From: Bacillota bacterium
Lineage (GTDB): Bacteria; Bacillota; Clostridia; Christensenellales; CAG-917
NCBI GenBank assembly: GCA_023665365.1
Contig: JAMPEA010000004.1
Span: forward strand, 32,823 to 96,822
DNA: 64,000 nucleotides
Reading direction: 5' to 3'
The notes under the pieces were generated by a model. It saw nothing but the letters and a program-made list of their open reading frames with translations. It did no database searches and had not been told where the DNA came from. The first letter of the stretch is position 1, and each line of letters opens with the position of its first letter. The position numbers and the translations under genes were made by a program. Below, in pieces: positions 5,982-51,648 of the stretch.

Positions 5982-6010
5982 GTATAATCCGCAACGGGTG
6001 TGCGTCGAGT

Positions 6011-6279
6011 ACTCTAAATAAAATAGCCCCCTCTTTCCCTGCGGGCTTTTCTCCCACCACTCAAACTTAGACGGGTGCAGTAGCTCCCTCTTTGTCTTTT
6101 TAAGTTTTCGTCGTTCGCGGGGGGCGACAATCGGCACTCGTGAACTGATTGCCGTCGCCTATTTATTCCACTCGTTCGCAAGCGTAAAAACTACACTCGC
6201 TTGCTCTCTTGTACTTTTCGTCGCACTTCGGCACTCACTTTCTCCGCGCCCTGCGCGTCGTGTTCTAAACTTCGTAACA
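6011..6279 (-). ncRNA. Candidate structured non-coding RNA, copy 1 (unassigned family)
   Basis: Shares conserved blocks with 22606-22937. The hairpin GCAAGCG...CGCTTGC here is GCGGGCA...TGCCCGC in copy 2, so three pairs are compensated. The CGCGC-AGG-GCGCG hairpin is invariant. The minus-sense 3' end is AGCCC...GGGCT followed by ATTTTATTT. Confidence 0.45.
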
Positions 6280-6541
6280 GCCGTTCGTCGTGTAACACCC
6301 TATCAAGCAGACGTTAAAAACACCCCCTTAAAGATTAAGGGGGGGGGGTTGGGGGGATATGAGGAGTTTTCAGGTAAGGGGGTTCATAAGGGGGTATAGG
6401 GCGGACTCGGAAAACAGCCCTTACCCCCTTAGTAACGTGGTTACACCACACCCGACACTGTGTGTCACCCTCTATCGATGGGAGGGCTGACGTTCTGGAT
6501 TGCTTCGCCAATAAATTGGCTCGCAATGACGACTGTAAGAT

Positions 6542-14741: not shown

Positions 14742-14975
14742 GTGTATACGTTGGAACAGATAAGAAAAAACTTAATCGAGGCTATCACGAGCAGTGGACT
14801 GACTCAATCCGAGATTGCAAAGAAATTGAATTTGTCTCATCAGACTGTCAATCAATATGTAAAAGGAAAGTCAATGCCTGCACTTGATACGTTTGCTAAT
14901 TTGTGCTCCTTACTCGACGTTGAAGCCGATTATATACTCGGGCTTATTGATATTGAGGGAAAAAAGACATATTAA
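14742..14975 (+). CDS. XRE-family helix-turn-helix transcriptional regulator
   Basis: 77 aa. 'LTQSEIAKKLNLSHQTVNQYVKGKSMPALDTFANLCSLLDVEADYILG' is a classic HTH_3 pattern. Confidence 0.8.
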   Translation: MYTLEQIRKNLIEAITSSGLTQSEIAKKLNLSHQTVNQYVKGKSMPALDTFANLCSLLDVEADYILGLIDIEGKKTY

Positions 14976-14995
14976 AAAATGTAAATATTTATATG

Positions 14996-15025
14996 AAAAG
15001 CGCCCTCTTTACGAGAGCGCTTTTT
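14996..15025. terminator. Bidirectional terminator between the XRE gene and gpmI
   Basis: AAAAGCGCCCTC-tttac-GAGAGCGCTTTTT hairpin with flanking A/T runs in a convergent gap. Confidence 0.6.
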
Positions 15026-15046
15026 AATTGCGTTTAAATATCATCG

Positions 15047-16612
15047 CTAAATTATAATGCTTTTGTCCCAGTGTGAGTCAACAGGCAACCCCATAAGCGT
15101 CATAGCAGTCGCCGCAACGTTGGACAATCCGAACTCGCCCTCGGCAATCTCGCAATCCGCATTGTATACAATAAACGGAACTACGTTTAAGCTGTGCGCC
15201 GTGCGGACGGCAATCTGACCTTTCTTGTTTTTTTCGAGCATTTCGTCCGCGTTGCCGTGGTCCGCCGTGACTATAAGCGTATAGCCGTTGCGTTTCACAA
15301 CCGGCAACAGCCTTGCAAGTGCGAGGTCCACTGCCTCAACGCCGATTATTGTCGCGTCAAGACTGCCTGTATGTCCAACCATATCGCCGTTAGGATAGTT
15401 GCAACGGATAAAGCCGTACTCCCCGCTTTCGATAGCCGCAATGACCTTATCGGTCACTTCTGCGGATTTCATCCAAGGACGCTCGTCGAACGACACCTTG
15501 TCGCTCGGCACTTCCTCCCAAACTTCCAGCTTATCGCTGAACTTTTCCGAACGGTTGCCGTTCCAAAAATACGTCACGTGACCGTACTTTTGCGTTTCAG
15601 AGACCGCATAGGACTTCACGCCGAGCTCGACGAGCTTTTCGCTTAGAGTATACTTGATTTGCGGCGGCTCGACGAGGAACCTCTTCGGCAAATGCAAGTC
15701 GCCGTCGTATTGCAACATGCCCGCATACAGCACCTTGGGCATATTGCCTCTGTCAAAGGCGCTGAACGCCTCGTTGTCGAACGCCATAGAAAGCTCGATT
15801 GCGCGGTCGCCGCGGAAGTTAAAGAGTATCACGCTGTCGCCGTCCGCCATAGCTCCGACGGGCTTTCCGTCCTCTTTGATGACGAATGCGGGCAGGTCTT
15901 GGTCGATGATGCCCTCGTTTTCGGCGCGATAAGTTTCAATCGCCTCCGTCGCGCTTGCAAAACCTCTGCCCTCGCCGTAAACGTGCGTATAGAAGCCCGC
16001 TTTGACCATATCCCAGTTGGCGAAGTATCTGTCCATCGTGATTTTCATACGACCGCCGCCCGAGGCGATTTTTGCGTCGAACGAGCTGTCGTTGAGGCTT
16101 TCGAGGGTGTTTTCAAGCGCTTCTACGTAGGTGAGCGCCGACGTCGCGGGAACGTCTCTGCCGTCAAGCAGAATATGTACGCGCACCTTTCTTACGCCGT
16201 CCTTTTTCGCGTGCAGGACGAGCGCGAGCAAATGCCCGATATTGCTGTGTACGTTTCCGTCGCTGAGCAAGCCGATAAAGTGCATAGTGCTTACGTTTTT
16301 CACACAGTTGTTTTTAAGCTCCTGCCAAGCGGCGGAATCGTATATATTGCCGCTTTCAATAGCCTCCTCGACGAGCTTCGCGCCCTGCGAGTACACCTGT
16401 CCGCACCCGAGCGCATTGTGTCCGACCTCGCTGTTGCCCATATCCTCGTCGGAGGGCAAGCCGACAGCCGTGCCGTGCGCCTTGATATACGTATGCGGAC
16501 ACTCCGCAAGCAACTTATCGAGCGTCGGCGTATTTGCCATTGTCACAGCGTCGCCAAGCCCCGTTTTCGACTTGCCTACGCCGTCCATAACTACAAGAAC
16601 AAGTTTATTCAT
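15047..16612 (-). CDS. gpmI: 2,3-bisphosphoglycerate-independent phosphoglycerate mutase
   Basis: 521 aa. 'VVMDGVG', 'GNSEVGHNALG' and the C-terminal 'TADHGNA' motifs are present. Confidence 0.95.
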   Translation of the reverse strand: MNKLVLVVMDGVGKSKTGLGDAVTMANTPTLDKLLAECPHTYIKAHGTAVGLPSDEDMGNSEVGHNALGCGQVYSQGAKLVEEAIESGNIYDSAAWQELKNNCVKNVSTMHFIGLLSDGNVHSNIGHLLALVLHAKKDGVRKVRVHILLDGRDVPATSALTYVEALENTLESLNDSSFDAKIASGGGRMKITMDRYFANWDMVKAGFYTHVYGEGRGFASATEAIETYRAENEGIIDQDLPAFVIKEDGKPVGAMADGDSVILFNFRGDRAIELSMAFDNEAFSAFDRGNMPKVLYAGMLQYDGDLHLPKRFLVEPPQIKYTLSEKLVELGVKSYAVSETQKYGHVTYFWNGNRSEKFSDKLEVWEEVPSDKVSFDERPWMKSAEVTDKVIAAIESGEYGFIRCNYPNGDMVGHTGSLDATIIGVEAVDLALARLLPVVKRNGYTLIVTADHGNADEMLEKNKKGQIAVRTAHSLNVVPFIVYNADCEIAEGEFGLSNVAATAMTLMGLPVDSHWDKSIII

Positions 16613-16713
16613 AGCAATCCCTATAAAGTTAGAGTTAAGTTAACGCTTAACGTTATTATTTGGATGATATTTGTTTTCCTTAAAATAAGTTAGTTGTTTT
16701 AAAACAGCATTCT

Positions 16714-16838
16714 AAAACTTGATTATTTGCGATGATTTTGCGTTTTCTCGCAAGGTTTTGGTCGCACCCAGTGTACAATCCGTACACGGTGCGCCAAGTT
16801 CTTGCGAAAAACACAAAAGGGCGCAAATAGCAAGTTTT
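16714..16838 (-). repeat. ~125-nt extended imperfect hairpin element, copy 1 (immediately after the tpiA stop)
   Basis: About 94% identical to 17752-17876. The whole unit folds back on itself (AAAACTTG.TTATTTGCG... pairs with ...GCGCAAATAGCAAGTTTT). The tpiA stop codon overlaps its end. Confidence 0.7.
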
Positions 16839-17589
16839 AATAGTTTATTACGTTAGAGAAATCAACAGCTTTTAAAGAAGCTCCGCCAATAAGTCCGCCG
16901 TCAATCTCGGGCATAGCCATAAGCTCTTTGACGTTCTTCGGGTTCATGCTTCCGCCGTATTGGATACGCACTCTGTTTTCGGCGCACTTGGGGCAATAAA
17001 GCTCCGCCATGGTGTTTCTGATGATTGCGATGGTCTCGTTTGCGACCTCCGCCGTAGCGGTCTTGCCTGTGCCGATAGCCCAAACGGGTTCGTATGCGAT
17101 GACGATATTTTCAAGCTCTTCTTTTTCGATACCCTCGAACGCGCCTTTTGTTTGACGCACGAGCACTTCCTCGACCTTGCCGCTTTCGCGCTCTTCGAGA
17201 GTTTCGCCTACGCAGACGATGGGTTTAAGCCCTGCCGCCAAAGCGGCTCTTGTCCTCGCGTTGACGGTCGCGTCCGTCTCGCCGAAATACTGACGGCGTT
17301 CGCTGTGTCCGATGATGACGTACTCTACGCCGAGCTCGGCGAGCATCTTTGCGGAAATCTCGCCCGTGAACGCGCCTTTTTCCGCCCAGTGCACGTTTTC
17401 TGCGCCGACTTTGATGTTAGTGCCCTTCGTCATCTCGACAGCCGTAGCGAGGTCGGTGTAAGGCGTGCAGATAACCACGTCGCACTCCGCGTCCTTGACG
17501 AGAGGGATAAGCTCCGAAATCAAGTTTTTGGTTTCTGCGATGGTGTTATTCATCTTCCAGTTTCCTGCGATAATTGCTTTTCTTGACAT
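16837..17589 (-). CDS. tpiA: Triosephosphate isomerase
   Basis: 250 aa. 'AGNWKMN', 'IGHSERR' and '[14 protein letters not shown]' motifs are present. Confidence 0.95.
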
Positions 17590-17751
17590 AATTTTTACCT
17601 CTAAAATATTTTATTGTTGTCTTGAAACTAATTCAAGAATGGTTTTAAGTTTGAGTTTTAACTCGGTTTGTAAGTTTATGGTGTAAATAAGGTTATTCTT
17701 GAAAGAATAAGGTTGTTTGCACAGGAGCATAAACTTATATTCACGACAAGA

Positions 17752-17876
17752 AAAACTTGATTATTTGCGATGATTTTGCGTTTTCTCGCAAGGTTTTGGT
17801 CACACCCAACGTACAAAACGTACGTGGTGTGCCAAGTTCTTGCGAAAAACACAAAAGGGCGCAAATAGCAAGTTTT
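17752..17876 (-). repeat. ~125-nt extended imperfect hairpin element, copy 2 (immediately after the pgk stop)
   Basis: Same element as 16714-16838. It differs at 8 positions: 6 form three fully compensated base pairs and 2 are in the apical loop. Confidence 0.7.
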
Positions 17877-28718: not shown

Positions 28719-28940
28719 TGTGACCTCTTTGTATTTGCTATCAATATAATAGCATATCGCAAAATCCTCGGCAATAGCGAGCGCAAAAAAAATCTCGCGC
28801 GCCGACCGCGACTTTTGAAATGTGTGTCCAATCCGCGTCAAGGCACTAAATATAGTATATTTTATAATCAGATGATTTAGAGATTGCTTCCCGCGGCAAA
28901 GTGTGCTAATCTAAATCAGCATTTCACGGGAGGAGTTGAG

Positions 28941-30380
28941 ATGAGCTTTGCAAAATTTTCAAGCGATTATCTGATGGAAACGTTTACGCTTGTAGACAAT
29001 CTGTTTATCAACGAATATCTGCCCTCCTGCGACGAGAAGCAGATAAAGGTGTATCTCTACGGGCTTTATCTGTGCGCCAATCCCGCAAAGGACAACTCTA
29101 TCGACGCGCTCTGCGCCCGTCTCGATATGACCGAAAACGAGATTATAAAAGTCTACGAGGAATTCGAGAACGGCGGTCTTTTGCAGATAGTGTCGCGCGA
29201 GCCGCTTGAAATAAAGTATCTGAGCCTCAAAAAATCCATGCAGCCGCCCAAGAAGTATAAGGGCGAAAAGTGGAACGATTTCAATACGCACCTGCAAAGG
29301 CTTTTCCCCGAGCGCATGCTCACCCCCAACGAATATAACGAATACTATACGTTCCTCGACGACACTAAGATGGAGCAGGACGCAATGCTTATGATAGTGC
29401 AGTATTGCATCGACCTCAAAGGCATGAACGTGCGCTACCCCTACATTTTGACAGTTGCGCGAAATTGGGCGCGAGACGGAGTGCGCACCGCCTCCGACGT
29501 AGAGGAAAAGCTAAAAGAATACGACACGCTTAGCGAGCAAATGCGCGCGGTGCTTGCCGCCCTCGGGAGAAAGGGCAACGCCGAGCTTGAAGAAAAGCAG
29601 ATGCTTTTAAAATGGTCGCGCAGTTGGGGCTACGAGCAGGACGCAATCCTCGCCGCGATAAAGACGCTGAAAGGTTCTAAGAGTTTTCAAAAGCTCGACG
29701 CAAAGCTCGACGAGTTTTATCGCACGTCGATTTTCACCGCCGAGCAAATCAAGGATTATCAAGCGCATATCGAGCATTTGCGAAGCGTCGCGCTTGCGGT
29801 CAACAAGACGCTCGGAGTTTTCTATGAATCCCTCGACCACGAAATCGAGGTATACATAGTGCCTTGGACGGTCAAGGGCTTCGAGGACGACGCCCTCACC
29901 AAAATTGCGCACCACTGCTTTATCACCAACGTGCGCACGCTCGACGGAATGAACAACGTAGTCAACAAATTCTATGCGCAGGGCTTGCTAACCTCTTTGA
30001 GCATAGACGAATATCTCGCCATTCAAATCGAGCAGGACGCGAAAATCAAAAAAATCATCGAAAAAAGCGGACGCGCCCGCGCCGTCACGCAAGCGGATAG
30101 AGATTACTATCGCACGTGGTCGGTCGTATGGGGCTTCGACGACGAGCTTATTTCCTACGCCGCCGAGCAAGCCGCGGGCAAAACCTACCCCACTCCCTAC
30201 ATAAATCAACTGCTTTCTGCGTACAAAGCAAAGGGAGTCACCACCGTGGAGCAGGCAAAGCGCACTCCCCTAACCCCGTCGAGCACGCGCGTATCCGACC
30301 ACAAAGAGAGAGTCTACACCCCCGAGGAACTGCACTCCATAGTGAGGAGCATAGGCACTTTCAGCGACGCGGACTTATGA
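28941..30380 (+). CDS. DnaD-domain replication initiation / membrane attachment protein (B. subtilis DnaB-like)
   Basis: GGGAGGAG RBS before 'MSFAKFSSDYL'. It has repeated DnaD-like modules ('YLYGLYLCANP...', 'MIVQYCIDLKGMNVRYPYILTVARNWARDGVRT') and is followed by a DnaI-type loader gene. Confidence 0.7.
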   Translation: MSFAKFSSDYLMETFTLVDNLFINEYLPSCDEKQIKVYLYGLYLCANPAKDNSIDALCARLDMTENEIIKVYEEFENGGLLQIVSREPLEIKYLSLKKSMQPPKKYKGEKWNDFNTHLQRLFPERMLTPNEYNEYYTFLDDTKMEQDAMLMIVQYCIDLKGMNVRYPYILTVARNWARDGVRTASDVEEKLKEYDTLSEQMRAVLAALGRKGNAELEEKQMLLKWSRSWGYEQDAILAAIKTLKGSKSFQKLDAKLDEFYRTSIFTAEQIKDYQAHIEHLRSVALAVNKTLGVFYESLDHEIEVYIVPWTVKGFEDDALTKIAHHCFITNVRTLDGMNNVVNKFYAQGLLTSLSIDEYLAIQIEQDAKIKKIIEKSGRARAVTQADRDYYRTWSVVWGFDDELISYAAEQAAGKTYPTPYINQLLSAYKAKGVTTVEQAKRTPLTPSSTRVSDHKERVYTPEELHSIVRSIGTFSDADL

Positions 30381-30387
30381 GGTTGAT

Positions 30388-31308
30388 ATGAAACAACGAG
30401 CGATAAAATCCGTCACGGTATTGCGTGAATATAAAATCGGACAGGCGAAAGCGGCAGCCGAAAGAAGGCTTGCCGAGGCTCTTTCCATTCCCGAAATCGC
30501 AAAGGCGCACGCCGACTACGTGAACCTCCGCTTCAAAGCGGCTCTGAAAAAATCCGAAAACGAGGCGGAAGCGGACAACGCGTTAAACGCGTATAAATCC
30601 GCCCTAAAAGCGCACGGCTTCGACGAGCGCGAGTTCGAGTACGCTCCCCTCTGTCCGATTTGCGGCGACGCGGGCGTAAAAGACGGCAAGGTCTGTCAGT
30701 GCGTTTGGAGCGACTATATCGCCGCATTAAAAAAGGTTTGCGAGATTGAAAAAAAGGCGACTTTCACATTCGCCGATTGCAATTTCGACGGCTTAGACGA
30801 CGAAAAACAAAAAGACACGCTTAAATCTTTTTACGCGTTTATGGAGCAGTATTCTCAAAAACTGCCCGCCGTCAAACTGAAAAATATCGTATTCACGGGC
30901 GGCACGGGCACGGGCAAAACCTGTCTTGCGAGCGCGGTTGCGAGGAACGCCGTCGAACACGGCAAAAGCTGTAAATTTTTATCCGCATTCGAATTTAATA
31001 ACGAAATGCTGTCCGCGCACACCTCGCCCATTGCCGAGCGAGCGCACAAGATGCGCGATATTCTGACTGCGGATTTGCTTGTCATCGACGACCTCGGCGT
31101 TGAGCCTATTTACAAAAATGTCACCGTCGAATATCTTTTGCTCGTGCTTGAAGAACGCACCCGCGCGGGGCTTTGCACGCTTATCACCACAAATCTCGAC
31201 GACGGCGATTTGCAGACTAAGTACGGCGACAGAATATGCTCCCGTCTGCTCGACAAAAAGCACTCGCGCATAGCGGCTTTTGTCGGCAAGGATTTGAGGC
31301 TTTTATAA
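30388..31308 (+). CDS. dnaI: DnaI/DnaC-type helicase loader ATPase
   Basis: Zinc-binding 'CPICGDAGVKDGKVCQC', Walker A 'GGTGTGKT' and Walker B 'LLVIDDLG'. The IstB/DnaC AAA+ pattern fits. Confidence 0.8.
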   Translation: MKQRAIKSVTVLREYKIGQAKAAAERRLAEALSIPEIAKAHADYVNLRFKAALKKSENEAEADNALNAYKSALKAHGFDEREFEYAPLCPICGDAGVKDGKVCQCVWSDYIAALKKVCEIEKKATFTFADCNFDGLDDEKQKDTLKSFYAFMEQYSQKLPAVKLKNIVFTGGTGTGKTCLASAVARNAVEHGKSCKFLSAFEFNNEMLSAHTSPIAERAHKMRDILTADLLVIDDLGVEPIYKNVTVEYLLLVLEERTRAGLCTLITTNLDDGDLQTKYGDRICSRLLDKKHSRIAAFVGKDLRLL

Positions 31309-47612: not shown

Positions 47613-47621
47613 ATTTTTTCA

Positions 47622-47815
47622 CCCCATCAAACGCGGAGGTTTGACGGGGACCCCGATTTATTCACCCCACAAAACAGGGACGTTTTGCGGGGACCCCGAT
47701 ATTATACCCCATAAAATAGGGACATTTTATGGGGACCCCGATTTATACCCCATAAATTGGCAATTTATGGGGACCCCGATTTTTCCCTACAATCGCGGAG
47801 GTTTACCCCTCCGTA
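47622..47815 (-). repeat. Tandem array of 4-5 CCCC...GGGG hairpin units, each followed by ACCCCGAT
   Basis: Units start at about 47622, 47664, 47707 and 47748, with a degenerate one at about 47785. The stems covary (CCCCACAAAAC/GTTTTGCGGGG versus CCCCATAAAAT/ATTTTATGGGG). The A.C mismatches on the plus strand become G.U in minus-sense RNA. Confidence 0.75.
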
Positions 47816-51522: not shown

Positions 51523-51556
51523 AAGCAATCCCACAGTCGTGGGATTGCTTTTTTTC
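51523..51556 (+). terminator. Strong intrinsic terminator of the small peptide gene
   Basis: AAGCAATCCCAC-agtc-GTGGGATTGCTT followed by T7. Confidence 0.75.
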
Positions 51557-51557
51557 A

Positions 51558-51648
51558 CCCCGCAAAACAGGGACGTTTTGCGGGGACCCCGTATTTACCC
51601 CACAAAACAGGGACGTTTTGCGGGGACCCCGTAGGGGAGGGGTTTTTG
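51558..51648. repeat. Two tandem CCCCRCAAAACAGGGACGTTTTGCGGGG-ACCCCGTA hairpin units plus a G-rich tail
   Basis: Units at 51558-51593 and 51598-51633, same family as 47622-47815. Lies in a convergent gap. Confidence 0.7.

Follow-up and report, generated by a model that had tools for sequence, protein, structure and literature searches.

Hairpins at the stop codons of a clostridial pgk-tpiA-gpmI operon belong to a dispersed family of small palindromic repeats

The pgk-tpiA-gpmI locus and its two full hairpins

A 64,000-nucleotide stretch of a genome assigned to the Christensenellales (Bacillota bacterium, lineage CAG-917; assembly GCA_023665365.1, contig JAMPEA010000004.1, positions 32,823 to 96,822 of the forward strand), referred to throughout as the window, was analysed with respect to a hairpin-forming repeat at the ends of the glycolytic genes pgk, tpiA and gpmI. 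An identical locus was found in the metagenome-assembled genome (MAG) GCA_023666605.1 (L001; loci used for comparison carry L numbers). The genes and features, in the order in which they would be transcribed, are as follows.

19266-19294, minus strand: promoter-like site upstream of pgk, TTGATA-17-TATATT with an upstream TG, a match to the consensus only
17879-19189, minus strand: pgk, stop codon TAA at 17879-17881
17752-17876, minus strand: full copy 1, after pgk, a 125-nt end-to-end imperfect hairpin
16837-17589, minus strand: tpiA, stop codon TAA at 16837-16839
16714-16838, minus strand: full copy 2, after tpiA, a 125-nt hairpin
15047-16612, minus strand: gpmI, stop codon TAG at 15047-15049
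14957-15069, minus strand: degenerate copy 3, on the gpmI stop codon TAG, with the apex module missing
14996-15025, minus strand: intrinsic-terminator-like hairpin within copy 3, AAAAAGCGCTCTC-GTAA-AGAGGGCGC followed by TTTTC

A sequence-only reading of the window had drawn attention to unusually long spacers of about 290 and 225 nt, and the measured lengths are 289 nt between pgk and tpiA and 224 nt between tpiA and gpmI. It had also placed the same element of about 125 nt within 0-2 nt of the pgk and tpiA stop codons, and this is what was found at 17752-17876 and 16714-16838: the pgk TAA ends 2 nt ahead of copy 1, and the two A residues of the tpiA TAA double as the first two A residues of copy 2. 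The copies are identical at 117 of 125 positions in a gap-free alignment, with similarity ending at the borders of the element. The 8 mismatches are confined to the central 30 nt, where two fall in the apical loop and six make up three base pairs that retain Watson-Crick complementarity, exactly as had been described; by our rough calculation, the probability of six stem substitutions forming three complete and complementary pairs by chance is below about 1e-6. The claim that each copy folds end to end into one long hairpin was likewise borne out. Both copies have the same predicted dot-bracket structure, with minimum free energies of -57.2 (copy 1) and -58.9 kcal/mol (copy 2) against approximately -26 +/- 3.3 for shuffled sequences (z = -9.7; none of 200 shuffles was as stable), and when 125-nt segments were folded along the whole window, these two were the sole single long hairpins among the most stable segments.

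Neither full copy has the form of an intrinsic terminator, in which a GC-rich stem-loop directly precedes a U run; within the locus this arrangement is present only in the third copy. In both full copies the inner hairpin is followed by GACCAAAACCTTGCGAG / ACCAAAACC, which provides no U tract, and the outer stem closes with A-U pairs. A scan of the minus strand from pgk to gpmI for terminators returned no terminator-like site.

Identification of the repeat family

Searches of existing collections did not assign the hairpins to any described family. Rfam 15 returned nothing at the gathering score over the 64 kb of the window, the hairpins themselves giving only weak miRNA-like matches, and canonical family members (defined below) were also without a match in Rfam. 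A scan of 185,579 GTDB representative genomes with the 18-mer arm sequence TTGCTATTTGCGCCCTTT yielded 10 matches of 18-25 nt, all attributable to chance, a negative result that applies to the window's own arm variant only. Viral contigs contained no match to a 23-mer from the arm and none to the family pattern described below. Similarly, blastn against plasmids and phages gave chance-level matches only, with canonical members unmatched and no parent insertion sequence found, and the family is absent from the libraries and literature that were searched.

The orthologous operons were more informative. Relatives of the window's TpiA are proteins from MAGs and metagenomes, the few named ones being labelled Christensenellales or Clostridia, and the corresponding spacers range from 86 to 814 nt (pgk-tpiA) and from 62 to 372 nt (tpiA-gpmI). 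No copy was found in these operons by blastn with the 125-mer; diverged relatives of the element were nevertheless read in the spacers of L024, L025 and L013, where they share a 5' end of the form TAAAA..TG.TATTT.GCG that falls on the stop codon, an apex CACGTAC-N5-GTACG and a 3' end ..AAATA....TTTT. A degenerate pattern derived from these features was scanned against metagenome contigs and recovered 17 loci, of which 11 were true members. A covariance model (R1) was then built from seven members on the structure of the L034 copy. R1 regained its seven members at 60-127 bits, and it scored the window copies at about 40 bits in the sense (minus strand) orientation, with 39.8 bits for copy 1 and 39.7 bits for copy 2; on the antisense strand the window copies scored 26-29 bits (28.8 for copy 1). 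Additional copies were found with R1 in every batch of related loci, whereas 10 unrelated control loci gave no match. In total, more than 30 copies of 116-129 nt were located in related metagenome and MAG contigs.

Comparison of the operon across relatives showed copies after pgk, tpiA or gpmI in several of them and no element in the orthologous spacers of L012, L023 and L027-32. The apex of copy 1 in the window is the canonical CACGTAC, as after pgk in L024 and L013, and that of copy 2 is the variant CGTGTACGGATT, which is also present in the post-tpiA copy of L026. The outer arms, which the two window copies have in common, are derived and unusually well paired. With very high confidence, the hairpins are members of a dispersed repeat family.

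A degenerate third copy on the gpmI stop codon

The hairpins had been described as twins. Two full copies are indeed present, but the count was incomplete, since a third, degenerate copy lies on the gpmI stop codon, so that three consecutive genes each carry a family copy at the stop. The arms of copy 3 are TAATTTAGCGATGA (5') and TTTTCATATAAATATTTACATTTTT (3'), and the last codons of gpmI (...HWDKSIII*) continue into the 5' arm. With filters switched off, R1 gave a weak match of 15.3 bits (E = 0.2). Matches were found between the 5' arm and the post-gpmI copy of L024 and between the 3' arm and that of the L034 copy, neither being equalled in any of 300 shuffles, and full copies occupy the end of gpmI in the relatives L024 and L050-52.

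The centre of copy 3 folds as a 12-bp GC-rich stem followed by UUUUC, which is the canonical form of an intrinsic terminator, and on the basis of this predicted fold copy 3 probably terminates the pgk-tpiA-gpmI unit. The idea that the hairpins act as partial terminators thus has to be divided: copy 3 contains a canonical terminator, whereas the two full copies, which have no U tract, are a poor fit. Within the tpiA-gpmI spacer, the minus-strand stretch CAAATATCATCCAAATAATAACG at window positions 16650-16672 resembles the family 3' arm CATCCAAATAT, and may derive from an older, decayed copy located downstream of copy 2.

Placement of the family at gene ends

Family copies follow at least 10 different upstream genes, as identified by Pfam. 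These comprise pgk, tpiA, gpmI, tsf (encoding EF-Ts), an mreB-like gene, genes for a PIG-L deacetylase and a radical-SAM activase, an unassigned ORF (open reading frame), a DUF2804 gene (in four lineages) and a zinc-ribbon/bPH_2 gene (in two lineages). All copies are in the sense orientation, and in 10 of 12 gene contexts the first copy starts at the stop codon of an ORF in the same orientation, or no more than a few nucleotides from it. The exceptions are a copy in L038 that follows an intrinsic terminator, an array in L060 that begins 178 nt past the stop, and the second units of tandem arrays. Judged against the window's own gene map, an intergenic element placed and oriented at random would satisfy this stop criterion with p = 0.071, and at that value the probability for nine of ten contexts is approximately 4e-10. 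The suggestion that the element is a REP/MITE-like palindrome (repetitive extragenic palindrome or miniature inverted-repeat transposable element) that targets gene ends is therefore supported, the family being found on the stops of many unrelated genes.

Where the comparison could be made, native C-termini are the same with or without the element, Pgk ending in ...LNE* (...IACLNE* in the window) and TpiA in ...NY*; the ...LNE* end of Pgk is shared by the window, L012, L023 and L024. In other lineages (L013-L022, L051 and L052 were compared for Pgk) 11-17 nt of the 5' arm are read as part of the ORF, so that Pgk ends in ...LNDKH* or ...LNDRAN* and GpmI in ...SIIR*. L051 and L052 encode an identical TpiA protein and have different Pgk C-termini. 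Since the 5' arm sits on or just after the stop in the sense orientation, the element should be transcribed as the first part of the 3' untranslated region (UTR) or of the intercistronic spacer. Its position within the 3' UTR is indicated in L034 and L040, where an intrinsic terminator comes after it.

At one of these loci (L057, 1-905) the stored annotation is a minus-strand 'Chromate_transp' gene at 1-688. A plus-strand ORF at 77-778 has clear Radical_SAM and Fer4_12 matches and ends exactly on the element, and from these matches the stored call looks wrong or shifted.

Anatomy and covariation

Alignment of 11 members with MAFFT followed by RNAalifold did not recover the hairpin, because the hypervariable stems were misaligned, and structure was instead analysed on an alignment made with the covariance model, which carries the L034 structure. 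The conserved parts are the inner arms (TATTTGGCG / CCAAATAT, the 3' side including CCAAATA), an asymmetric internal loop in which CTGCGTCAG faces CTTCCTTG, and the apex TCACGTAC-N5-GTACGYT. The mid stems are hypervariable, to the point of being saturated with change, and retain pairing. In most canonical members a T/C-rich tract directly follows the inner hairpin (for example GGTTTTTCTTTCTTG, GCTTTTTCTTG and TGTTTTCTTGTTTTTC), and two derivatives that have lost the apex, namely the gpmI copy of the window and a remnant in L034, are canonical terminators.

The outermost 10 bp also vary from copy to copy, the two arms changing together so as to remain paired, as the termini AAAAATGTGC/GCACATTTTT, ACGACAAGCAC/TGCTGTCGT, CCATAATCCGC/GCGGATTATGG, TTTGAGTGTGC/CCCACTCAAA and GGTGAGCGCAC/TGCGCTCACC illustrate. 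Several of the paired termini contain the last codons or the stop of the gene itself, such that ORF end and terminal stem co-vary.

Covariation was measured on a model-based alignment of 27 copies. Paired cells accounted for 85% of the total, compared with 65% in shuffles and 35-42% with slid partners; double changes were observed at 40 of 49 pairs; and the covariation score was 0.508 against 0.166, a value reached in none of 500 shuffles. An alignment fitted to a model favours structure, but the margin over both controls is still large, and the view that pairing is maintained rather than drifting neutrally, which had been derived from the two window copies, consequently holds for the whole family. 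Pairing is kept across the family, either by selection or by arm-templated correction.

Copy-number dynamics and history of the copies

The number of copies differs between loci whose flanking proteins are identical. After gpmI there is one copy in L052 and there are two in L050 and L051, and after the DUF2804 gene there is one in L060 and L062 and there are two in L061. After pgk, L051 has a copy X, L052 a copy Y, and L050 has X followed by Y. In all three comparisons (gpmI in L050/L051 versus L052, DUF2804 in L061 versus L060/L062, and pgk in L050 versus L052), which are unpolarised, the extra copy is interposed between the ORF end and the other copy. L025 and L026 encode the same TpiA protein and carry different elements. 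Tandem arrays occur, and decayed remnants of 5' or 3' arms are found downstream of full copies at many loci. A clean pair of empty and filled sites was sought among the DUF2804 relatives; only differences in array copy number (L061 versus L060) were found, with no simple insertion. Taken together, dispersal, polymorphism, arrays and remnants indicate a repeat that spreads.

With respect to the window, the compensated differences between copies 1 and 2 are probably not fresh compensatory mutations that followed a duplication, since the apex of copy 2 (CGTGTACGGATT) occurs also in the post-tpiA copy of L026. Judging from these sequences, the centres of the two copies look like inherited variants that were each already paired, and the identical outer arms look like the outcome of homogenisation between two copies 1 kb apart.

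One strain of the abundant P0003 species (L014, 3434-4000) has a post-pgk element that breaks off at CTTCATCCGA|. Unrelated sequence takes the place of the remainder of the spacer, which measures 567 nt as opposed to 200 nt in L013.

Comparison with known repeats

Comparison with ERIC (enterobacterial repetitive intergenic consensus) and SPRITE elements was functional and architectural only. ERICs (also termed IRUs, 127 bp and MITE-like) resemble the present family in falling within the same size class of about 125 nt, in folding end to end into a long imperfect hairpin and in being co-transcribed with their neighbours. Conversely, ERICs have fixed termini and a TA duplication, whereas here the terminal stem follows the end of the ORF and TA is inconsistent; ERICs also occur far from ORFs and in the other orientation, whereas nearly all first copies of the present family are at stops. 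No sequence relation would be expected between elements of Clostridia and of Enterobacteriaceae. In work by De Gregorio and co-workers from 2005, ERICs that overlap or adjoin stop codons reportedly share one orientation, the ribosome hindering folding so that an RNase E site is exposed. An ERIC at the 3' end of a gene lowers the level of the upstream transcript, with ribosomes hindering folding and an RNase E site being unmasked, an effect for which orientation is crucial (PMC2229807, PMC10969869). The Correia/NEMIS elements of Neisseria, whose RNA hairpin is cut by RNase III with altered transcript levels as a result (PMC2229807, PMC10969869), are likewise co-transcribed inverted-repeat elements, of 100-155 bp. 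They differ in that their terminal inverted repeats are long and fixed, in having a TA duplication as well as IHF/promoter motifs, and in lacking stop anchoring.

SPRITE elements have AAAA/TTTT ends and a long duplex with a U-rich tract, are enriched near the 3' ends of coding sequences (CDS), and have no established target-site duplication (PMC3049150). The likeness to the present family extends to each of these points, with AAAA...TTTT termini, a duplex and then a U-rich tract, CDS 3'-end enrichment and no established duplication, in a repeat that is likewise of Firmicutes. However, SPRITE is described as less tightly folded, with an 18-bp duplex; the conserved apex module and the stop anchoring have not been reported for it; and the full copies in the window have no U tract.

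REP and REPIN sequences are also hairpin-forming extragenic repeats that lie mostly downstream of ORFs and are probably transcribed, and pairs of REPs give longer hairpins. The ends of GTAG REPs frequently provide the TAG stop of the adjacent ORF (PMC3733652). The present family differs in being without a GTAG/CGTC head, in forming a single 125-nt hairpin as opposed to REPs of 20-40 nt, in having no REP-associated tyrosine transposase (RAYT) gene in the window, and in an apparently low copy density of 3 in 64 kb. A REP/RAYT system was rejected because there is no GTAG/CGTC head and no Y1 transposase among the 55 ORFs of the window.

Finally, the attC sites of integrons, such as the 123-126-nt VCR, are imperfect palindromes at ORF 3' ends that have a fixed orientation and often contain the stop codon. 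Structure rather than sequence is conserved in attC, the centre being variable but paired, and it is the bottom strand that folds. The present family is similar in position, in size and in the conservation of shape over sequence. However, the R'' (RYYYAAC) and R' (GTTRRRY) boxes are absent, the window copy reading ATAAAAC...GTTTTTC and most members starting with TAAAATGTG, without AAC/GTT; and the order pgk-tpiA-gpmI is kept in relatives with and without the element, which is not the behaviour of a cassette array. An attC identity was accordingly rejected, the R''/R' boxes and a cassette context being absent and no integrase being encoded in the window. Readings of the hairpin as part of a CRISPR, a retron or a diversity-generating retroelement were rejected also. 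By analogy with these classes, the family can be filed among the small palindromic intergenic repeats, within which it is set apart by near-obligate sense anchoring at stops, a terminal stem that co-varies with the ORF and a conserved apex.

Mobility and possible function

The explanation that is considered probable is that the hairpins are a non-autonomous palindromic repeat of the ERIC/SPRITE/REPIN kind, belonging to a clade of uncultured Clostridia and co-transcribed as an RNA hairpin at the 3' ends of genes. Its parts differ in strength. There is fairly high confidence in classing the family as a non-autonomous element that moves or recombines; an action on the fate of the mRNA, as a co-transcribed RNA hairpin, is suggested with moderate confidence. 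In such a scheme, spread of the family would need an enzyme or a recombination route. The full copies after pgk and tpiA, which have no U tract, would be read through and would fold within the polycistronic mRNA, and the gpmI copy, having lost its apex, would now serve as the terminator of the unit. At the RNA level the hairpin would be a structure of the 3' end, with the terminating ribosome melting its base, and could thereby modulate decay or processing, in analogy with the proposal made for stop-adjacent ERICs.

Several observations weigh against this explanation. No transposase, integrase or RAYT/Y1 gene was found among the 55 ORFs of the 64-kb window, plasmids and phages yielded no parent insertion sequence, and only 3 copies are present in 64 kb. 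No consistent target-site duplication of the TA kind was seen: nearly all copies have a T on the 5' side, but A follows the 3' end in only 6 of 11, and a search of the 3' flank for the original stop codon gave an inconsistent result. The terminal stem, moreover, is not a fixed terminal inverted repeat, since both arms change to fit the end of the ORF, unlike in classic transposase-bound MITEs. Lastly, the strand on which folding might be selected was assessed by comparing G-U with A-C apposition and sense with antisense folding energy. The result is mixed and leans towards antisense, with 8 of 11 independent copies folding better as the antisense strand and 3 as the sense strand, the latter being favoured by both copies of L024 and that of L034; the test therefore neither demonstrates selection on the sense RNA nor decides between the RNA and DNA levels.

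The relation to MITEs is similarly divided. Size and dispersal are those of a MITE, with a length of 116-129 nt, more than 30 copies, at least 10 gene contexts and a copy number that differs at identical flanking proteins. A fixed terminal inverted repeat, on the other hand, was not found, the inner arms being conserved and the outermost 10 bp variable, and neither was a parent insertion sequence. Given the absence of a transposase or integrase in the window, of a consistent duplication and of fixed termini, membership of the classic MITEs is not established.

Alternative explanations

A tentative proposal, to be regarded as rather doubtful, is that of a mobile hairpin that homes to ORF ends, each new copy being placed in the sense orientation onto or just 3' of a stop codon with its terminal stem tailored to the last codons, so that the RNA or DNA hairpin, its 5' arm beneath the terminating ribosome, could couple the end of translation to the fate of the mRNA. 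The three copy-number comparisons, in which the extra copy is the one next to the ORF end, and the decayed partial copies further downstream at several loci are in keeping with this. We know of no described class of prokaryotic repeat that combines homing to ORF ends with a terminal stem tailored in this manner.

An unlikely alternative is a mobile terminator or attenuator, that is, a portable Rho-independent terminator formed by the inner GC-rich hairpin and a T-rich tract, retained in the sole orientation in which it terminates and serving, inside the operon, as a partial terminator that sets the pgk:tpiA:gpmI ratio. The T/C-rich tract after the inner hairpin of most canonical members, the conversion of apex-less derivatives (the window gpmI copy and the L034 remnant) to canonical terminators, the strict sense orientation and the precedent of SPRITE (PMC3049150) are all consistent with this. 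However, the inner hairpin of the full copies in the window is followed by GACCAAAACCTTGCGAG, without a U tract, these copies sit upstream of essential glycolytic genes, and the minus strand from pgk to gpmI was without a terminator in the scan; in L034 and L040, a separate terminator stands behind the element.

Less probable still is a DNA-level recombination site, in which folded single-stranded DNA would be recognised by a dedicated enzyme (of the attC/IntI, REPIN/RAYT or IS200/IS605 type), copies would be inserted at ORF ends and folding of the RNA would be incidental. The greater stability of the antisense (bottom) strand in 8 of 11 independent copies points in this direction, as does the resemblance of the conserved apex and internal loop, together with hypervariable paired mid stems, to sites recognised by shape. 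The attC-like location at ORF 3' ends, where the site takes in the stop codon, the extra copy next to the ORF end in the three comparisons, and the decayed partial copies further downstream would also be accommodated. Conversely, the RYYYAAC / GTTRRRY boxes and GTAG/CGTC heads are absent, the neighbours are core genes in conserved synteny as opposed to cassettes, no integrase or Y1 transposase is encoded in the window, and the strand asymmetry is mixed, with sense favoured in L024 (both copies) and L034.

The least probable explanation, and a very improbable one, is an operon-specific cis-regulatory RNA, a processing or stabiliser site that evolved in place and was duplicated once from pgk to tpiA; the copies do lie in a highly expressed operon, pairing is strongly kept and several relatives also have related copies behind pgk, tpiA and gpmI, but the family also follows tsf, mreB-like, DUF2804, PIG-L, radical-SAM and other genes, the same spacers lack the element in the close relatives L012, L023 and L027-32, and tandem arrays and decayed remnants occur. 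An operon-only riboregulator was rejected on account of the copies dispersed over many unrelated genes, by which the operon-specific reading is already largely refuted. Since the element is not special to pgk and tpiA, the device for setting the pgk:tpiA:gpmI ratio that the sequence-only reading had entertained is an unlikely origin for it. These hairpins do not constitute a regulator dedicated to glycolysis.

Wider relevance

Work on small palindromic repeats (REP, ERIC, Correia and BOX/RUP/SPRITE) has dealt for the most part with a few cultured pathogens, and the rules of placement of these repeats and their functions are largely unsettled. The present family, which comes from metagenomes and MAGs of uncultured Clostridia, follows an unusually clean rule, namely one orientation, the first copy on the stop and the native C-terminus preserved, and shows an unusually strong covariation signal. 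It thereby makes testable whether placement at stops arises by targeting or by selection, and whether a hairpin with a ribosome-covered base links translation to mRNA decay, processing or termination. The elements also enlarge intergenic spacers and change protein C-termini (Pgk ...LNE*, ...LNDKH* or ...LNDRAN*), and they can mislead gene callers and predictions of operons and terminators in MAGs.

Other repeats and genes

A second repeat family in the window consists of units of about 42 nt (CACCCCRCAAAACAGGGACGTTTTGCGGGGACCCCGAT), each with an 11-bp GC-rich hairpin, arranged in short tandem intergenic arrays that resemble REPs or BIMEs (bacterial interspersed mosaic elements). These arrays are the most stable folded segments of the window, at the following positions.

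47614-47785: array of 4 units of the ~42-nt repeat
51550-51647: array of 2 units
about 898-929: ~42-nt repeat

The same repeat follows gpmI in the relative L054 (12655-12791). A further hairpin repeat, ..AAGGTGCAAAATG.G.CAAG....CACATTTTGCGAA.., is present in the pgk-tpiA spacer of L012 (3757-4000) and in the tpiA-gpmI spacer of L024 (1625-1969), and judging from these sequences, more than one repeat family seems to accumulate in the glycolytic operon's spacers. The window also contains, at 6002-6295 and 22597-22953, a repeat of about 350 nt made up of three blocks that are 78-92% identical. Both copies are intergenic, one lying between polA and a Big_2 gene and the other between the SpoU-methylase and Dus genes, and the repeat has no Rfam match.

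A small cassette lies between pgk and tpiA or upstream of tpiA in L023 (2494-3037), L054 (9250-9809), L055 and L056. It is composed of an ORF of about 50 codons encoding an RHH_5 protein and a divergent ORF encoding about 100 amino acids, and looks like a toxin-antitoxin pair.

The minus strand carries nearly all genes of the window. A pair of ORFs conserved in L050-52, at 28884-30377 (DnaB_2 domain) and 30388-31305 (IstB_IS21-like domain), represents, as judged from the domains, replication-initiation or helicase-loader genes (DnaD/DnaI-like) as opposed to part of an IS21 element.

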